Source: a phage. Taken from it: a stretch of DNA of 64,000 nucleotides. The stretch is taken from the NCBI GenBank assembly GCA_032986305.1, contig GCA_032986305.1_3672.1. The stretch is one strand, 5' to 3'. Shown here piece after piece: positions 29,566-41,020 of the stretch. Made by a program: the position numbers and the translations under genes. The notes under the pieces were generated by a model. The model was not told the DNA's origin, made no database searches, and saw only the letters and a program-made list of their open reading frames with translations. How positions within the stretch are numbered: the stretch's first letter is position 1; each line of letters opens with the position of its first letter.

Positions 29566-30754
29566 CCTGAAGAGGCAAACGTGCATAATTCCTGTGCATT
29601 GGAACGTATGAAACCCTGTTCACACTCTCATTTCCAGAGGAGATTTCATGAAGATAGAAATATTTGGTGGAGCTGACAACACTCGTGGCCTGATTTACCT
29701 TGAATTCGATGAATCATACCTGCCAGAGGTGTTAAATATAAACTCTGTTGCTGAGGCTTTGGGAGTAAACCCTAAAGAACTCCACTCTTGTGCTGAGATC
29801 GATGGTTGGGAAGAGACCATGAACATTGATTTCAGTGAAGTAGAGGATGAACCGCTGGACTGACACACAATTAGCTGCCCGGCTAAAGTGCTGGAAGCAC
29901 CTATAACACATCTTTCAACTAAATTTCCCACCACCACAATCACTTACCTCCCACACATGACTGTTTGCTTGTTTAGTGAGCAGTCATGCCTTGACATTCT
30001 TGCCTATCCTGATAAAATTAAGTTCTTCTCTTTTCTTTTACCGAGTAATTCGGGTTTTCTGTTCTCTTCGGTTTGAAGAGGTATGGAGATACACCTGAGT
30101 GAACAGGGTGAACAACCGAACCATTGGCTATGGCATTAGCATGGCGAAGCGGACGGGTGACGAAAGAGGGGCCGGAGGACACCAGTCACTGCCATATGAT
30201 ATACGGGTGATAACCTGAAGAGTCTGAATAAGTGTTTAAGTACCAGTCAGAGGAAAAGGTGAATGGTAGCCGAAGGGGGAGGGGGGTTTCTTGTATCTTT
30301 AATTTGTATATTATGTATACACTTGTAAACCAATCTCATCTGAATCTGTTTACTACACAAAGCTGATAGGGACAAATATTACCTATTAAACTTGAATTAT
30401 TTATAGAAAATACCACAACACAACTTAAGTCTTTGATTTTACACACAAATCCTGCAGATATTCACCCTCCATATTTAACATACTTGTAACATATTCCATA
30501 CTCTACCTACCTGATCAATTTACCCACCAACATCCTCCATATTTTCCCTGTCTGTACCACCCCTGCCCCGCCGGGAGTCCCGTCATATCTGGCTTTCCAG
30601 CAAATATCACACCCACAAATATCATTGCCTGAAGAGGATTTCATCTCATAATACATGCCTTGCCTGAAGAGCGCTTCATACACCACGTAAATTTTTTAAT
30701 TGACCCCCTCCCCGCCGCCGGAGAGGTTGGCTTTTCCCACACAGACCTGAAGAG
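29566..30754. repeat. five dispersed copies of 9-mer CCTGAAGAG
   Basis: Exact copies at 29566, 30214, 30628, 30663, 30746 within non-coding DNA. Confidence 0.6.
29648..29863 (+). CDS. small acidic protein
   Basis: SD GAGGAGA; last plus-strand gene before noncoding region. Confidence 0.4.
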   Translation: MKIEIFGGADNTRGLIYLEFDESYLPEVLNINSVAEALGVNPKELHSCAEIDGWEETMNIDFSEVEDEPLD

Positions 30755-31279
30755 TCAGCCAGAAATATCTGAATGGACCCAATTCTGCCCTGTTATGAGC
30801 CGTAGCTACTGGAGTGCTGCCAGGCGGACGAAATGGGAATACTTCTCATTCTTATAACAATTCTCAAATATCAAGGCAGTGAGTCAAATTAATAGGCGAG
30901 GCCGTTCACACAGTGGCACAACATTTGCAACCTATCTTGTGGGGGTGAATGAGAATACCTATCATTGTGAGAATAGTTATCATTACGGGCAATTTAACAT
31001 AATACCCATTATGCGCACCACTGGCGATACATACAGGGATTGATAACATGAGTTACTGTTTACGCATATAACAATTATATTTCTTACTATTTGTGTGGGA
31101 TATAGTTAGCAGCCAATAGATTAGATATTGACCTGTAGACTTCCAACCGTCTAGACGTCTAAACGCCCACACAGCAAGGGTTATACATACACTTCTGAAT
31201 GTAAACAGGGCCGCAAAAATGCTACCATACCAGTTTGTAAATTTTTCATGCAGCACTTGACAAAGAGGAGAAAAACTTG

Positions 31280-31440
31280 TCTGACACTTTAGACACAATA
31301 GTGACATACTATGACACCTTTGACACTTTTGCATACCTGATTGTTTGCATGTCTAATAGTTTACATGGATAACTGTTCACATACTTATCATTTACATGAT
31401 TGACTGTTTACACAAATATGATAAGCCATGACATTCGTTT
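31280..31440. repeat. iteron-like direct repeat arrays (TGACAC(T)TT x3; GTTTRCAY x7 at about 16-bp period)
   Basis: Read directly: tttgcat, gtttgcat, gtttacat, gttcacat, atttacat, gtttacac, gtttgcat in series. Confidence 0.55.
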
Positions 31441-31500
31441 GCATGAAAACAATTAACAAGATAACAATTGACAAGCTAACAGCCAACAAGCTGACAATTA
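31441..31500. repeat. four tandem 15-bp repeats (consensus NTAACAATTRACAAG)
   Basis: aaaacaattaacaag / ataacaattgacaag / ctaacagccaacaag / ctgacaattaacagg. Confidence 0.55.
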
Positions 31501-31517
31501 ACAGGTTAATAATATAT

Positions 31518-31687
31518 GACATAATATAAAAGCAGGGCAACTATTAGCAGATCTATAGTTGCCTTGCTTGTTATGTCATGATTAACTAAATACAAGGCAA
31601 CTATGATCTGATTAATAGTTTGCAGACAAACTATCACGGGGGTGATTGTTACTGCTTTTATATTATGTCGCGACTCCGTCGCGACAT
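31518..31687. repeat. nested inverted repeats (18-bp IR GACATAATATAAAAGCAG, inner palindromes, GTCGCGAC x2)
   Basis: 18-bp perfect inverted repeat at 31518-31535 and 31654-31671; GGCAACTAT-n-ATAGTTGCC; ATAGTTTG-caga-CAAACTAT. Confidence 0.55.
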
Positions 31688-32307
31688 GTCATTCGTTTGC
31701 ATAGTTGCCTTATTGTTACGGATAAAATAATTGTATTGTTAATTATTTCTTATCTTTCTCTTAGTCATCTAATGATTCCAGTCAGTATAGTAATGTACAG
31801 TAAACATTAGACGACTAAATATTTCTCTGATTATAGTAACCTATCGTGACAATTTCGGACTGTTTACGAAAAATGTTGACACCTGGGCAGGTTTATGTTA
31901 TGCAGTTTGTACGAATAATTATTTTATACAGGTATTGACTATTCCGTTATTCTGTGGTTGGAATAAATACTTTGCAGGCTATAGAATGATGTTCGTACGT
32001 GAATTCTGAGATCTGTCGGCTATAGTTACACCCGATTTTTCACGTAGGACACGCTTTTTGGTTTGTGTAAGTGTATGACTTATAAGGGTTTTTAATTGTT
32101 GACAGTATGCTGAAAATGTGCATCAGGTTAAATTTTGTGCAATAGCTGCATTACGTGCGTTTTTGGAAGGAAAAACGTGTAAAAATGACCCTGCTACCAC
32201 AAGATGAAAGATTATGCAATAGTTATTTTATATGTATATTTGTACAGTGTGCGGGATTAATGGCTCGTCAATTATTCCACTTGCCAGGTAGGGCCGTTTA
32301 TGGTAGG

Positions 32308-35909: not shown

Positions 35910-36029
35910 TCAGGTGCGTACAGCGATAAAATACATCCCTACGCCTAACAATATTTCAAGGGCGATAATCTCCAGCCATACCATAACACGGCGCGCCTTA
36001 TCGGTGCGGGGCTTATCCTTGGGTGTCAT
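35910..36029 (-). CDS. small membrane peptide (39 aa)
   Basis: Hydrophobic C-terminal half; followed by terminator. Confidence 0.3.
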   Translation of the reverse strand: MTPKDKPRTDKARRVMVWLEIIALEILLGVGMYFIAVRT

Positions 36030-36049
36030 CGTCTCCCCCTTTCCTCCTG

Positions 36050-36271
36050 TTAGTAGTGACGTGGTTTACAATGGTCCCCAGGAGTACTATCGCCACGCAC
36101 ATTACGAGAAAAATTATTTCTTCCGTTGTTCGGTCCATTGTTATAAAACCTCTCAAGATCAGGTCTAAAAGTAAATCTTTCGTTATTGAATCCGTCACGC
36201 CAGGCGGCTGGCTTCAAATCTTCACTAAATGGATTAATTAACGTGGCATTATTTAAACGGTTGGCCCACAT
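36050..36271 (-). CDS. hypothetical Asn-rich protein
   Basis: SD GAGAGG before ATG 36271. Confidence 0.3.
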   Translation of the reverse strand: MWANRLNNATLINPFSEDLKPAAWRDGFNNERFTFRPDLERFYNNGPNNGRNNFSRNVRGDSTPGDHCKPRHY

Positions 36272-36620
36272 ATTTTCTATTCCTCTCAAATAGGCGATCC
36301 GCCTCAGTTAAACATATCTCATGGGCGTGATCTCTGGTTTTAGCTTCATCGAAAACCTGTTGTGCAAGGCTGCAACGTAGGGAGACTGGAAGATCACTAT
36401 AATAGGCGTTGACAAACGTTTGAGCGTCGTACAGGTCTGAAAATACTTTACCCTTTCTATTATTTCCCTTGTCAACAATTGCAAGGATAACCAATACAAT
36501 AGTTGCAACCACCCCCAGGAAAATAGATATAATAAACCATAAAAAGGCGGATCTCCCCATCTTGCCAGCGATCCAGGCGTTAAACAAGGCAACCAATATA
36601 GCCAAAATAATAAATTCCAT
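36249..36620 (-). CDS. membrane protein
   Basis: SD AAGAGG before ATG 36620; two TM helices. Confidence 0.4.
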   Translation of the reverse strand: MEFIILAILVALFNAWIAGKMGRSAFLWFIISIFLGVVATIVLVILAIVDKGNNRKGKVFSDLYDAQTFVNAYYSDLPVSLRCSLAQQVFDEAKTRDHAHEICLTEADRLFERNRKYVGQPFK

Positions 36621-36684
36621 TCTATGTACCTCTTTTACAGTTCTGATTAACAATAAGGCGGCAAATATGCCGCCTGTTACCTGA

Positions 36685-37065
36685 TTAAAAATTATCGCCG
36701 TAAATCTTTCCGCTTTCTACCCATACCACCACGCGAGGCATACTATCCCACACGTCTTGTTTTAGATTGAGCGCGTGCAATTCTTCGGTGGTGCTCATAC
36801 CGGGCACGGGCTGATTGTATACTGCAAAACGACCGCCTGCATAATCATAGGCCAGGGTTAAATCACACTGGATCATCTTTTTGATCATGGCATTAAGCAT
36901 GGCGTTAGCCGCATATTGATCACGTTTTAAAGGCAACTCTTTGATTAGTTTGCGATAGTTTTCGATATGGTCGCACACTGTTTCACGAGGAAGATCTTTC
37001 ATATCCTCGCGAAAGGTAACCAGGTTAAACATAACGGTGTCAATGGCCTTGGTAGTGTTTTTCAT
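36685..37065 (-). CDS. hypothetical protein
   Basis: SD GAGAGGA before ATG 37065. Confidence 0.45.
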   Translation of the reverse strand: MKNTTKAIDTVMFNLVTFREDMKDLPRETVCDHIENYRKLIKELPLKRDQYAANAMLNAMIKKMIQCDLTLAYDYAGGRFAVYNQPVPGMSTTEELHALNLKQDVWDSMPRVVVWVESGKIYGDNF

Positions 37066-37154
37066 AATGTTATCCTCTCTGTTTTGTGTTGGGCAAGTCA
37101 TCTCGCCCCTTGAGTTTTAATATAGCAGGTTTTTAGATTATTGCAACACTTTAT

Positions 37155-37778
37155 TTATGAAAAACTCATCTCCCCATATTCATCCACATCAAACCGCCAA
37201 TCATTGGCTTCAATAAGGCCGATCAGGTTTTCGGTAGTAAACTGTTCAAGATAGGCCCCCTCCAGGTCTACGTAAACCTTGCGGGATAGCTCCCGTACCG
37301 TCTCGGTGATCAGCTCTTCCAGCTCTTCAACTTTATCCTCTTGCTTGGTGGTCAGGTCTAGCCAATTAGTATCGATGCACCCTCCTATTGTGTTTTCGTG
37401 GTGATAATGGCTAAACGGGATACGTTCAACACTAGCTGATAACTCGCCATCGTGCATTGTGCCGAACAAGTGACGAATTGATCGGAACTTGGTCAGGGCC
37501 TTGACTTTACGCAAGAATTTTTCTAAATCCACGTTTTCAGCACTGATTGACGCGCCATCGCCTTGACACCAAAAGCCGGACCAACGTACTTCGGTATCTT
37601 CAAGGCCGTACTCTGGAAAGACATATTCTTTATAGTGTTCAATTACGCTTTCTGCAAAAAAATTATCCCCGCTGTGTTCTTCTCTTTCGCGTACCATTTC
37701 AATGGCTTTTTCTTTTTGTTCGTCGGTCAGCACATCGAAAGATAAATTGTAACCTGTGGTAATGTTAACGGTGGTCAT
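37155..37778 (-). CDS. hypothetical acidic protein
   Basis: 207 aa, strongly acidic; SD AGGAGAAAAT. Confidence 0.45.
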   Translation of the reverse strand: MTTVNITTGYNLSFDVLTDEQKEKAIEMVREREEHSGDNFFAESVIEHYKEYVFPEYGLEDTEVRWSGFWCQGDGASISAENVDLEKFLRKVKALTKFRSIRHLFGTMHDGELSASVERIPFSHYHHENTIGGCIDTNWLDLTTKQEDKVEELEELITETVRELSRKVYVDLEGAYLEQFTTENLIGLIEANDWRFDVDEYGEMSFS

Positions 37779-37799
37779 GATATTTTCTCCTGTTTTCTT

Positions 37800-37864
37800 T
37801 GTTAGTGGCGGGAAGTTTTCCCGCCTGTGTGTTTAATTATACTTATTGAGATTTACTTGTCAAC
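37800..37864 (-). promoter_or_regulatory. promoter (TTGACA-16-TATAAT) plus 5' UTR hairpin GGCGGGAA/TTCCCGCC cassette
   Basis: Minus-strand consensus hexamers at 37858-37863 and 37836-37841; palindrome 37807-37825. Confidence 0.55.
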
Positions 37865-38113
37865 ACTATTTTTTAAATTATTGTGGCGCAAAATGTTTAA
37901 AATCTCTTCAACGTCATCAACACGGCGGCAATTTTTAAACGCTACCAATTGCCCCATGATTTTAATCACTGGGCGGCCTTGCCAGTGCCCTTGGAGAAAG
38001 CGCGCCTTGACTTTATCGGTGGAACTATCACGCCACCAAATAGCCTTGTTGTTGCAGTAGTAAAAATTATTCAGGATAACATCAACTTTATCAAAATTTT
38101 TTAATTTACGCAT
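37853..38113 (-). CDS. hypothetical protein
   Basis: SD AAGGAG. Confidence 0.45.
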   Translation of the reverse strand: MRKLKNFDKVDVILNNFYYCNNKAIWWRDSSTDKVKARFLQGHWQGRPVIKIMGQLVAFKNCRRVDDVEEILNILRHNNLKNSVDK

Positions 38114-38292
38114 GGCGTTTACTCCTTCCTCTCTTTGATGTGGTTAGTATAGCTAACCTGTTGACGATGTCAATGATATTTTTAACGCCATAAAACGGCC
38201 CTGGGCGATGTTTTCAGGTTAAAGGGGGCGATTGCATAGGTGGGGGCCTTTTTGGCGCTTACAGGGCCAACCAGGGGCGCTATTCGTATGAT

Positions 38293-38323
38293 AGAAATAA
38301 AAAGCCCCGCACAATGGCGGGGC
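38293..38323 (-). terminator. rho-independent terminator (minus strand)
   Basis: GCCCCGC-acaatg-GCGGGGC then U-run on minus strand. Confidence 0.55.
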
Positions 38324-38331
38324 GTTGGTTG

Positions 38332-38529
38332 TTATTTGTCTTTATGGCGGTATCGTTCTGCCTGTCGTTCACGTTCCAAAAGTAGGCCGGGCAATTTACG
38401 ATCATAATGATTACGCCAGATCTTCCCAAACCTTTTTGGCTTATTCAGTTTATTGTTACGCTGGCGGCGTTCTGGCAGCTCTTCGGAATCATGAGGGCGC
38501 TTTACAATTTTCTCGAAATTAATTTTCAT
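38332..38529 (-). CDS. small basic protein
   Basis: Arg/Lys-rich 65 aa; terminator immediately downstream. Confidence 0.4.
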   Translation of the reverse strand: MKINFEKIVKRPHDSEELPERRQRNNKLNKPKRFGKIWRNHYDRKLPGLLLERERQAERYRHKDK

Positions 38530-38873
38530 ATATTCCCCCCCTTGCTAACTTCAATATTGGCCTGAATAGCTCGGATACGGCGCTTTATAACTTCCTGATC
38601 TGTGTGGTCGTATCCCCAAAAGTCTACAATTTTTGCGCCCCCCGCCTCCAGGCGGTATAGTGTTTCCTGCATTTTGTAAGCCGGGATCGGGCGCGGTGTT
38701 ACTTGGTCACCTTCTTTATTTTTATACTTTATAATATAATCTTCGTTATCGTTGAATGCCCAAAATGGATATTCTGCAAGGGCGGTACTTCCTCTTTCCT
38801 TTTTATCCTGGATCTTATTTACAATTAAAGCCGTAGCAATAGCGCCAATAATAAAACTAGCCCCGCTAATCAT
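38526..38873 (-). CDS. membrane-anchored protein
   Basis: N-terminal TM helix. Confidence 0.45.
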   Translation of the reverse strand: MISGASFIIGAIATALIVNKIQDKKERGSTALAEYPFWAFNDNEDYIIKYKNKEGDQVTPRPIPAYKMQETLYRLEAGGAKIVDFWGYDHTDQEVIKRRIRAIQANIEVSKGGNI

Positions 38874-38949
38874 GTGTACTTTCTCCTTTCATGGTGTTAA
38901 TAAATTATCTTTATAGATGGCCCTGCAACCAGGACCACCGAAAAAATAA

Positions 38950-39195
38950 CTATTTCACAATGCCTACAAAACAGATCCCGCCTTCACCTATGTAAGCAAT
39001 ATCGGTAACTTTATAATTTGTCAAGATCTGTTTATTTAGTTCATTAATAAAATCGGTCATTGCGTTGGTGTAGTTGTCTTCCATATCTAAGGCATAATCC
39101 CAGGCGTAAACCTTTTTACGTCCGAAGCCTTTTACCATGATACGGGCGCTTTTGGTGTTGGTGGGCGCATAATATTTTGTGATTAGTGCTGCCAT
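38950..39195 (-). CDS. hypothetical protein
   Basis: SD GAGGAG. Confidence 0.45.
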   Translation of the reverse strand: MAALITKYYAPTNTKSARIMVKGFGRKKVYAWDYALDMEDNYTNAMTDFINELNKQILTNYKVTDIAYIGEGGICFVGIVK

Positions 39196-39234
39196 GGTTT
39201 TAACTCCTCATTAGTTCAGTGTTAACAGTGTAAA

Positions 39235-39287
39235 GTTTACTTTATTGATGGCCCTGGAGTCAAGGCCATCTAAAAATAAATTTTACT
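39235..39287. repeat. repeated palindromic intergenic element (copy 2)
   Basis: gatggccctggagtcaaggccatc with one mismatch in stem. Confidence 0.6.
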
Positions 39288-39594
39288 CGTTTTCTTCCAG
39301 CTCTGTCTGCAATTCCTGGTATTCTTCATCGTCCTCAATATCCAGGCTGTCGATGTAGTCGCTAAATCCGCAGCGGTAAGCGATAGGATCTAACTCCTTG
39401 AGGATACGCGACGGAAGAAAAGAAATGTTTCCGATCATAATTTCGCCGTAGATCTCGTCTAGCCATTCGTCATAGTTTTCGTCGTACTTGTCCTCGTCGA
39501 TTTCAAAGTTATCGATCTTGTTCTCAAGGTCTGCGATCTGTTTTTTCAGCGCGGCGATCTGCATAGCTTTTTCTGCGGCGGTCATAGTAGTCAT
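39283..39594 (-). CDS. hypothetical acidic protein
   Basis: SD AAAAGGAGAAA; Asp/Glu-rich. Confidence 0.45.
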   Translation of the reverse strand: MTTMTAAEKAMQIAALKKQIADLENKIDNFEIDEDKYDENYDEWLDEIYGEIMIGNISFLPSRILKELDPIAYRCGFSDYIDSLDIEDDEEYQELQTELEENE

Positions 39595-39675
39595 GGTGTT
39601 TTCTCCTTTTGTGTGTTCTGGGAAGTTTTCCCGTTTACGTGTTTAAGTATACCGATTTGGGTTAGCTTGTCAATT
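39595..39675 (-). promoter_or_regulatory. promoter (TTGACA-16-TATACT) plus 5' UTR hairpin cassette
   Basis: Same architecture as 37800-37864. Confidence 0.5.
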
Positions 39676-39793
39676 AAAAATTTAAGAAAAATTTTGCAAA
39701 ACTGTTGGCGCTACTCATTAACATTTGCGCCAGGATGTAACCGACAACGCAAACGATAATAGTTACCTTTGTGTATTGGCGTGTAGTGCTCAT
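39674..39793 (-). CDS. small membrane peptide (39 aa)
   Basis: SD GGGGG; hydrophobic. Confidence 0.3.
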   Translation of the reverse strand: MSTTRQYTKVTIIVCVVGYILAQMLMSSANSFAKFFLNF

Positions 39794-39826
39794 CTTAAAG
39801 CCCCCTTTTCGCTTAGTTGAGACTAG

Positions 39827-39876
39827 TTTACTTTATTGATGGCCCTGGAGTCAAGGCCATCTAAAAATAAACTTAA
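39827..39876. repeat. repeated palindromic intergenic element (copy 3)
   Basis: Identical core to copy 2. Confidence 0.6.
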
Positions 39877-40277
39877 TAAGTTTTCAGTACTTTACCGTCC
39901 AACCTGTCAAGCTGGATCTCAATAGCTGCAGAAAACCTATTGTACACCACGTCGCCCATAGAATCCAACCAATCTATGACGTTATATACCTGCTCTTTAT
40001 TCTTACAGGTCCGGATCCGTTTCATGATGTAAGCCGGATCAATATTGGTACTCTCGTTGGTGTTCCCCTGTACCTGGTTTGCCGTATTAGTTACATCTTT
40101 AATGGCCTTTACCACCACCTGGAATGGCTTTAAGGTGCCTTTTGCGTTCATCTCACGCGCTTTTGCGGCGCGGTTGTTATATGTTACACAACGGCGGCAA
40201 ATATTGATCAAATGCATGTCAATAATTTTTTCATCGTTTGCCAACTCGTTCATGATGCGGCGTACGTTCTTATTCAT
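39873..40277 (-). CDS. hypothetical protein
   Basis: 134 aa; own promoter/hairpin cassette at 40278-40352. Confidence 0.45.
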   Translation of the reverse strand: MNKNVRRIMNELANDEKIIDMHLINICRRCVTYNNRAAKAREMNAKGTLKPFQVVVKAIKDVTNTANQVQGNTNESTNIDPAYIMKRIRTCKNKEQVYNVIDWLDSMGDVVYNRFSAAIEIQLDRLDGKVLKTY

Positions 40278-40352
40278 GGTCTTTTTCCTTTATGTTGGCG
40301 GGAAACATTCCCGCCTTTTGTGCCCAGTTTACTTGAATTTTGCAGCGTGTCA
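40278..40352 (-). promoter_or_regulatory. promoter (TTGACA-16-TAAACT) plus 5' UTR hairpin GGCGGGAA/TTCCCGCC
   Basis: Palindrome 40296-40314, SD AAGGAAAAAG. Confidence 0.5.
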
Positions 40353-40359
40353 ACAATTT

Positions 40360-40758
40360 TTATTCATGGGCGCATGTTACAATGTGCTTTTTATAGCCCA
40401 GGCGGTCAGCAAGTGCCGACAAAAACTCTTCTTCGTAGATCCAGCCGTCGGCAGTGATCCCCATAGTATTTAATGCGCTCTCAAGTGCTGCGTTGGCCTT
40501 ATCATAACCGTGACCGCTCGCCTTGCCGCCAGTATAGCCGTACTTATTGTTCTTGTTGTCGTGTATCCAAAAAACGCAGTAGTAAGTGTTCCCGCTGGCG
40601 GCGGCATAGTACCGGATCTCCGCTACTTCGTGCAAATTATTATCATCGTCCAGGCCAACCAGATTATAAGCCTTGTAAAATCCACGATCACGGCGGCAAT
40701 TTTTAACATCAGAAAAAGAGAAGTCGGCATTGTCAAAATTAAAGGTTGTGGTTTTCAT
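40360..40758 (-). CDS. hypothetical protein
   Basis: SD GAGAGGATAAA. Confidence 0.45.
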   Translation of the reverse strand: MKTTTFNFDNADFSFSDVKNCRRDRGFYKAYNLVGLDDDNNLHEVAEIRYYAAASGNTYYCVFWIHDNKNNKYGYTGGKASGHGYDKANAALESALNTMGITADGWIYEEEFLSALADRLGYKKHIVTCAHE

Positions 40759-40822
40759 GATTTTATCCTCTCAGTGTCTTTTTTGATTTCAGTATATTTT
40801 GTGTCAGGCCATATGTCAATAC

Positions 40823-41020
40823 TTATTTTTTATTAAACCAGTGGTTGATCTGGCCTTTTGTCAGGGCGCAACGATTAAGTTGGTGCCGTGTATAGCTCTG
40901 ACCGCGACGGAATTTATAAAGGCCTTGCCCGTTGTTGATGGTTACATCCACCCGGCAAACCATTTGATCGGTGACCACCTGGCGAGTGTTGCGACGTACT
41001 TTGATTCCGTAGGCGTTCAT
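40823..41020 (-). CDS. small basic protein
   Basis: SD AGAGAGGATAAAAAAT. Confidence 0.4.
   Translation of the reverse strand: MNAYGIKVRRNTRQVVTDQMVCRVDVTINNGQGLYKFRRGQSYTRHQLNRCALTKGQINHWFNKK

Follow-up and report, generated by a model that had tools for sequence, protein, structure and literature searches.

Are two strongly acidic early proteins of an E. coli phage DNA mimics that block restriction enzymes in the manner of Ocr or ArdA, as a first-pass annotation had put forward, or do they benefit the phage in another way? We addressed this question for ORF A (37155..37778, 207 aa) and ORF B (39283..39594, 103 aa), two open reading frames (ORFs) on the minus strand of a 64,000 nt stretch of phage DNA (assembly GCA_032986305.1, contig GCA_032986305.1_3672.1), hereafter called the window. 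Megablast of the 36-41 kb segment matched 123 phage records, virtually all of them Vequintavirus, with identities of 90-96%, and judged by this similarity the window is Vequintavirus genome; the members of this genus are rV5-like E. coli myoviruses of ~137 kb. A gene-by-gene match to rV5 identified ORF A as rv5_gp180 and ORF B as rv5_gp187, both situated in a long run of small minus-strand genes, and their counterparts in the BASEL phage MaxBurger (Bas54) are bas54_0113 and bas54_0108, with gene order the same as in Bas54 and rV5. Both genes were present in every Vequintavirus examined. The two are real genes, with an identity of 88-99% in more than 100 genomes of the genus and with distant homologs that retain 25-55%. 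As a whole, the data are best explained, with moderate probability, by two unrelated and dispensable accessory genes, of which ORF B is host-specific and ORF A acts in establishment or counter-defence. Both most likely encode early accessory factors of the counter-defence type, the case being more convincing for ORF B than for ORF A.

For ORF B, a host-specific phenotype of the Bas54 ortholog has been published. bas54_0108 is 94% identical to ORF B over 95 aa, occupies the same genomic position and is preceded by the same promoter cassette. In the HIDEN-SEQ transposon-insertion preprint it was classed as non-essential on E. coli K-12, with 18 of 19 TA sites hit (10.1101/2025.11.20.689424). In the clinical isolate CFE303 insertions in this gene were depleted, those at its 3' end being tolerated (10.1101/2025.11.20.689424). 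This tolerance implies that the core of the protein is conditionally required and its acidic tail dispensable, in agreement with the comparative pattern described below. In the isolate CFE311 the HIDEN-SEQ table lists a log2 fold change (log2FC) of -0.52 for bas54_0108, which is not significant.

ORF B matches phrog_9294 (PHROG 9294) at E 5e-50, and 70 homologs were found, the versions in close phages being 113-116 aa long. Alignment occupancy across this family is 0.98 for residues 38-85 (39340..39483, minus strand), whereas the N-terminal helix reaches 0.64 and the tail 0.73. The conserved core thus delimited combines a helix that bears an acidic stripe with a beta-hairpin and the motif S-R-I-L-K-E-L-D-P-I-A-Y-R-C-G-F-S-D-Y. 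The stripe is conserved (D38 E39, D42 E43 and D46 E47, i.e. positions i, i+1, i+4, i+5, i+8 and i+9), and D69, Y73 and D79 are invariant. Distant versions from marine phages (59-64 aa) comprise the core only, with Y-D-x-x-L-D-E-I-Y-G-E followed further on by the identical 19-residue motif, and other homologs carry Cys-rich motifs in place of the acidic tail. The tail itself (residues 86-103; 39286..39339, minus strand) contains 10 Asp or Glu and no Lys or Arg and is variable across the family. Within Vequintavirus, the tail of ORF B is 30 nt (10 aa) shorter than that of bas54_0108, the loss lying between the direct repeats TTAGAAGAA and CTGGAAGAA. An AlphaFold2 model of ORF B reached a pLDDT of 90.9 and a pTM of 0.67. 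Searches of ORF B against Pfam, NCBIfam and PDB (by sequence and by profile) gave matches no better than coiled-coil noise, and PADLOC gave nothing above noise. Apparent matches of the two ORFs to GvpG, LmuB, SbcC and a 'Zn-ribbon' were rejected as coiled-coil or low-complexity artefacts. Hits to the designed-repeat PDB entries 5byo and 4yxz were discarded as additive repeat noise in which no single domain was significant. Together with the phenotype in CFE303, this pattern makes ORF B a credible candidate for a host-specific counter-defence factor acting via its conserved core, and the fact that function resides in the core and not in the tail narrows the search for its target.

ORF A belongs to a far larger family. 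It matches PHROG 5162, a group of unknown function, at E 1.2e-86 over residues 4-205 of 207. A profile built from ten homologs recovered 958 proteins in a word-indexed database, and an exhaustive search of sequence clusters at 50% identity yielded at least 6,352 representatives at E<=1e-3, of which 4,148 also passed E<=1e-10; nearly all members are ~200 aa long. None of 98 family members matched a Pfam model, scans of ORF A with Pfam, NCBIfam and PADLOC gave nothing above noise, and PDB sequence searches, single or profile-based, found nothing. RefSeq names for the family vary between 'DUF8835 domain-containing', 'antitoxin of toxin-antitoxin stability system' and hypothetical protein; the DUF8835 label was taken from one RefSeq record of an E. 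coli homolog and refers to a model newer than the Pfam copy used. As a member of this PHROG 5162 / DUF8835 family, ORF A falls into the phage branch, whose identity to the plasmid branch is ~25-33%, and no structural trait sets it apart from the other members. The literature searched under DUF8835, the PHROG identifiers, the rV5 gene names and WP_000094919 returned nothing.

Across the 98 family sequences G68, F69, Q72, G73, G75 and A76 are invariant, all of them within the signature S67-G-F-W-C-Q-G-D-G-A76 (codons 37551..37580, minus strand). Y125, H127, R162, Y169, E173, N192 and F196 are at least 96% conserved, and L172 and G202 are conserved as well. The family signature, SGF-x-[SC]-QGDGA together with Y-x-H, R, Y-x-x-L-E and N-x-[YW]-x-F, is present in ORF A in its entirety. 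An AlphaFold2 model computed with the family alignment (pLDDT 91.3, pTM 0.82) predicts an alpha/beta protein in which the signature lies on the loop of a beta-hairpin and the conserved R, Y and E residues on a 36-residue helix. The predicted fold had no detectable match to any solved structure, and Foldseek against viral models (BFVD) retrieved uncharacterised homologs only. The most conserved columns are mostly non-acidic and motif-like, and only 14 of the 44 acidic positions of ORF A are conserved as acidic. This conservation pattern suggests that ORF A has a specific site for binding or catalysis and does not work by charge mimicry. Specifically, the invariant Gly-rich loop and the conserved Q, D, H, R, Y and E suggest, as far as sequence comparison goes, a site for a ligand, a substrate or a protein partner, not a charge decoy. 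Fusion proteins of the family contained no known domains in Pfam or PHROGs. Three metagenomic proteins (P0226, P0237 and P0277; 614-775 aa) carry the ORF A family domain in permuted form, with the C-terminal half before the N-terminal half that holds QGDGA, followed by an extension of 350-500 aa that matches neither Pfam nor PHROGs.

The genomic contexts of the ORF A family point to the first moments after DNA entry. Homologs were located at 332 or more bacterial loci in several phyla, on 103 plasmids and on 294 viral contigs including those of jumbo phages, and 2,683 of 5,426 complete E. coli genomes harbor an island homolog, in up to 8 copies each. On a Shinella conjugative plasmid the homolog is part of a one-directional array encoding ParB, an antirestriction protein, DUF932, the ORF A homolog, a methyltransferase, a Strawberry-notch helicase and a toprim protein, which ends ~18 kb from traCDG | traA. 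A Pseudosulfitobacter plasmid carries it after SSB, DUF932, RadC and DUF6878, adjoining a Phd-family antitoxin gene. In E. coli islands of the CP4-44 type it is found between yeeS (RadC) / yeeT (DUF987) and cbeA-cbtA, with DUF932 and an antirestriction gene upstream. Among 18 taxonomically spread bacterial loci the Pfam families counted in the neighborhood were the Strawberry-notch (Sno) helicase (10), DUF7146/Toprim (6) and ParB_N (4), and further neighbors included ArdC, RadC, TrwC relaxase and integrase. Plasmid leading regions have been described as hotspots of anti-defence genes, in which one third of the top families are uncharacterised and ~10% share annotations with phages (PMC11541004). 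This enrichment supports, without proving, a role of the ORF A family in establishment or counter-defence. In the jumbo phage Pectobacterium phage CBB the homolog is located inside the annotated terminal redundancy and is consequently present in two copies, and several more jumbo phages carry it inside the first 2-20 kb of their records.

The first-pass annotation had also claimed that both ORFs possess strong promoters of their own, and this was borne out by a near-consensus sigma-70 match directly upstream of each ATG. The ORF A promoter (37836..37863, read from 37863 to 37836 on the minus strand) is TTGACA-16-TATAAT and agrees with the consensus at 12 of 12 positions; that of ORF B (39646..39673, read from 39673 to 39646, minus strand) is TTGACA-16-TATACT, agrees at 11 of 12 and is annotated as P192 in the rV5 record. 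Each promoter opens a cassette in which TAAACAC, a GGGAA-AAC-TTCCC hairpin, AGGAGAAAA and four bases precede the ATG. At ORF A the hairpin (37807..37825, minus strand; GGCGGGAA-AAC-TTCCCGCC) is located between the -10 box and the ribosome binding site (RBS) and has its stem extended to 8 bp around the 3-nt loop, and the RBS AGGAG (37787..37791, minus strand) lies 8 nt before the ATG. At ORF B the same element reads CGGGAA-AAC-TTCCC (39620..39633, minus strand), and an AGGAG RBS can be read from the sequence at 39603..39607 (minus strand). Within the window the full cassette is confined to these two genes, and a third, looser copy stands ahead of the gene at 39873-40277. The three minus-strand copies (37776-37863, 39592-39673 and 40275-40353) share the pattern of promoter, CGGGAA-NNN-TTCCCG hairpin and AGGAGAAAA-N4-ATG, and all of them are kept in Bas54 with the stem fixed and variation in the 3-nt loop alone. 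The annotation of phage Alma treats such hairpins as terminators, but they have no T-tract on the coding strand and are located downstream of the -10 box. Each hairpin thus forms the extreme 5' end of its transcript and may be an element that stabilises or processes the mRNA.

Given these promoters, ORF A and ORF B are probably immediate-early and strongly expressed. In the HIDEN-SEQ table for K-12, mean transposon read counts within the region peak at bas54_0108 (3,479) and bas54_0113 (1,629), their neighbors ranging roughly from 150 to 800. Because the promoterless anti-CRISPR gene of the transposon is expressed by read-through, these counts may be a sign that the shared cassettes drive unusually strong or early transcription.

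In the mechanism that we propose, host RNA polymerase would transcribe each gene from its own near-consensus sigma-70 promoter through the common 5' leader hairpin. ORF B would encode a small helical protein of which the conserved 48-residue core, and not the acidic tail, is needed in particular natural hosts; via the conserved acidic face of its helix it would most likely bind stoichiometrically to a strain-specific host factor, probably a defence component, and neutralise it. ORF A would act soon after entry of foreign DNA, in establishment or counter-defence, as its genomic context suggests. If such a role holds true, its family would be among the largest uncharacterised ones of that kind, reaching across about half of the complete E. 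coli genomes, many alphaproteobacterial plasmids and jumbo phages. A bolder version, which we put forward tentatively and consider doubtful, is that ORF A represents a new and widespread establishment or anti-defence class (at least 6,000 clusters) with no match among solved folds and a conserved binding or catalytic site, used on DNA entry by phages, conjugative plasmids, integrative and conjugative elements (ICEs) and islands, and that, separately, the ORF B core is a new inhibitor of an E. coli defence system in CFE303.

Several points weigh against a counter-defence role. The early timing is drawn solely from the host-type promoters. The role of ORF A is deduced from its gene neighborhood alone, since its ortholog shows no phenotype on K-12 or CFE311, and RefSeq attaches to its family an 'antitoxin' label, though this is probably unfounded. 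For bas54_0108 no defence system was assigned in the HIDEN-SEQ study (10.1101/2025.11.20.689424), the paper on Druantia III / ARMADA does not name a target of ORF B, and the requirement in CFE303 could stem from a host difference other than immunity. In addition, the CFE303 resampling output seems to be missing from the deposited HIDEN-SEQ table: in Extended Data Table 8 (S6, S7) the console line of the sheet 'resampling_K-12_vs_CFE303' names '311', and the values are identical to those of the CFE311 sheet.

The most serious alternative is that both proteins have a general part in taking over the host or in phage physiology, e.g. by modulating host transcription, replication, the nucleoid or metabolism, and that the effect in CFE303 reflects a physiological difference between hosts. 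The HIDEN-SEQ authors themselves mention that a conditionally essential gene may 'exploit host-specific resources' (10.1101/2025.11.20.689424). Takeover factors are frequent among early phage genes of unknown function, and the ORF A ortholog is without phenotype in the two hosts for which there are data, being dispensable on K-12 (insertions at 34 of 36 TA sites) and neutral in CFE311 (log2FC +0.06). However, the ORF A family is common to plasmids, ICEs and islands, which do not take over their host, and is clustered there with antirestriction and establishment genes, and a need that differs between strains, like the one for ORF B, is more typically a matter of variable immunity than one of conserved physiology. 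We consider this explanation unlikely, if still deserving of attention.

The proposal that ORF A, ORF B or both are DNA mimics of the Ocr/ArdA type, blocking restriction enzymes (type I in particular) or other DNA-binding defence proteins, stood in part. Both ORFs are acidic, as the first-pass annotation had stated. ORF A contains 21.3% Asp and Glu and 9.7% Lys and Arg (net charge -24, isoelectric point (pI) 4.53), and ORF B contains 29.1% Asp and Glu (net charge -22, pI 4.05) and has the C-terminus ...DIEDDEEYQELQTELEENE quoted there. When the window's 115 non-overlapping ORFs of 60 aa or more are ranked, ORF B comes first and ORF A 13th in Asp and Glu fraction, and ORF A second and ORF B third in net charge. 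Since 30 of these 115 ORFs have a pI below 4.6, acidity singles out the two only weakly. It is a general property of small proteins in this phage and, where one quarter of the ORFs equal them, on its own a weak predictor of function. The acidity is nevertheless kept in both families (median pI 4.65, range 4.24-5.17, for A; median pI 4.05 for B), an acidic stripe runs along the conserved helix of ORF B, and KlcA-type antirestriction genes adjoin members of the ORF A family. Like T7 Ocr, the products are small and very acidic, and the genes are non-essential with strong host-type promoters of the kind active at the start of infection. The charge density of ORF B, -0.21 per residue, is near that of Ocr, which is about -0.24 per residue.

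What did not stand is the relationship to known mimics. Neither ORF matched any Pfam family at E<=1, including ocr, ArdA, Antirestrict and CbeA_antitoxin. Alignment with hhalign to T7 gp0.3 (Ocr) gave probabilities of 0.5% for ORF A and 0.15% for ORF B, and that of the ORF A family to an island KlcA-type antirestriction protein gave 0.2%. Members of the ArdA family are recognised by Pfam ArdA homology and an elongated three-domain dimer fold, and the ORFs showed neither. Although ORF A shares with ArdA and KlcA/ArdB its acidity and, through its family, the arrays with KlcA-type genes, DUF932, RadC and SSB in plasmids, ICEs and E. coli islands, it lacks a match to the ArdA and Antirestrict models of Pfam and its predicted fold differs. 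The predicted folds of the two proteins showed no similarity to Ocr, ArdA or KlcA; DNA mimics span many unrelated folds, so that a missing fold likeness is not decisive. The comparisons show that neither protein belongs to the Ocr, ArdA, KlcA or YeeU families. Moreover, as set out above, the most conserved columns of ORF A are motif-like, and the most acidic segment of ORF B is both dispensable and variable. The Vequintavirinae are exceptionally susceptible to restriction-modification (RM) according to the BASEL study, whereas the type I resistance of T7-like phages is ascribed there to Ocr or to an S-adenosylmethionine (SAM) hydrolase (PMC8594841). As both genes are found in all Vequintaviruses examined, this susceptibility argues against an Ocr-like general function. 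Inhibition of some DNA-binding defence outside such a general function would be compatible with RM sensitivity. Altogether, the observation of acidity and strong promoters is correct while the specific interpretation finds no support, and we regard DNA mimicry as improbable.

Least probable of all is that ORF A is an antitoxin against a toxin of the host or of a mobile genetic element, either within a toxin-antitoxin pair or as an orphan that disarms abortive infection based on such pairs: the labels 'YeeU-like' (phage JLBYU08) and 'antitoxin of toxin-antitoxin stability system' (RefSeq), the E. coli island homolog immediately upstream of cbeA-cbtA, the Phd-family neighbor in Pseudosulfitobacter and the over-representation of orphan antitoxins in leading regions (PMC11541004) speak for it, but cbeA-cbtA next to the homolog forms a complete pair by itself, hhalign against CbeA/YeeU (cbeA of pB39_V) gave a probability of 0.1%, a toxin-family neighbor (AbiEii) occurs at 1 of 18 bacterial loci and none is present in the phage studied here, and the gene is a separate one whose product, with ~207 aa and a conserved motif, does not resemble the usual small antitoxins, CbeA having 122 aa. 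There is no conserved toxin partner. The labels look like names transferred from neighboring loci, and in the literature the phrase 'antitoxin of toxin-antitoxin stability' was met only in generic COG-style usage.

Some further features of the window were noted. The closest matches to 36000-41000 (96% identity) are MG065662, MG065672, MG065674, MG065677 and others. These records are unannotated, are named 'Campylobacter phage A142/A141/A140/A13b...' and give Campylobacter jejuni as host, which looks doubtful since the genomes are those of rV5-like coliphages. No tRNAs were detected in the window and no Rfam match within 28-42 kb. A strand-switch region at ~29900-32300 contains few genes, has a GC content down to 0.39 and carries short tandem repeats of 15 bp x3.7 (31448-31503), 16 bp x2.5 (31328-31367) and 18 bp x1.9 (30950-30984). 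Between ORF A and ORF B, the minus-strand gene at 38526-38873 encodes a protein of 115 aa with an N-terminal hydrophobic segment (PHROG 12734); its ortholog bas54_0110 was classed as essential by HIDEN-SEQ (9 of 31 TA sites hit) though it is located amid dispensable accessory genes (10.1101/2025.11.20.689424). The minus-strand gene at 39873-40277, which follows the third cassette, encodes a protein of 134 aa (PHROG 13245, unknown function) orthologous to bas54_0106. In the HIDEN-SEQ table bas54_0106 is strongly depleted in CFE311 (log2FC -3.18, adjusted p ~0), a result that is not discussed in the text of that paper, and this gene is another candidate host-specific factor.

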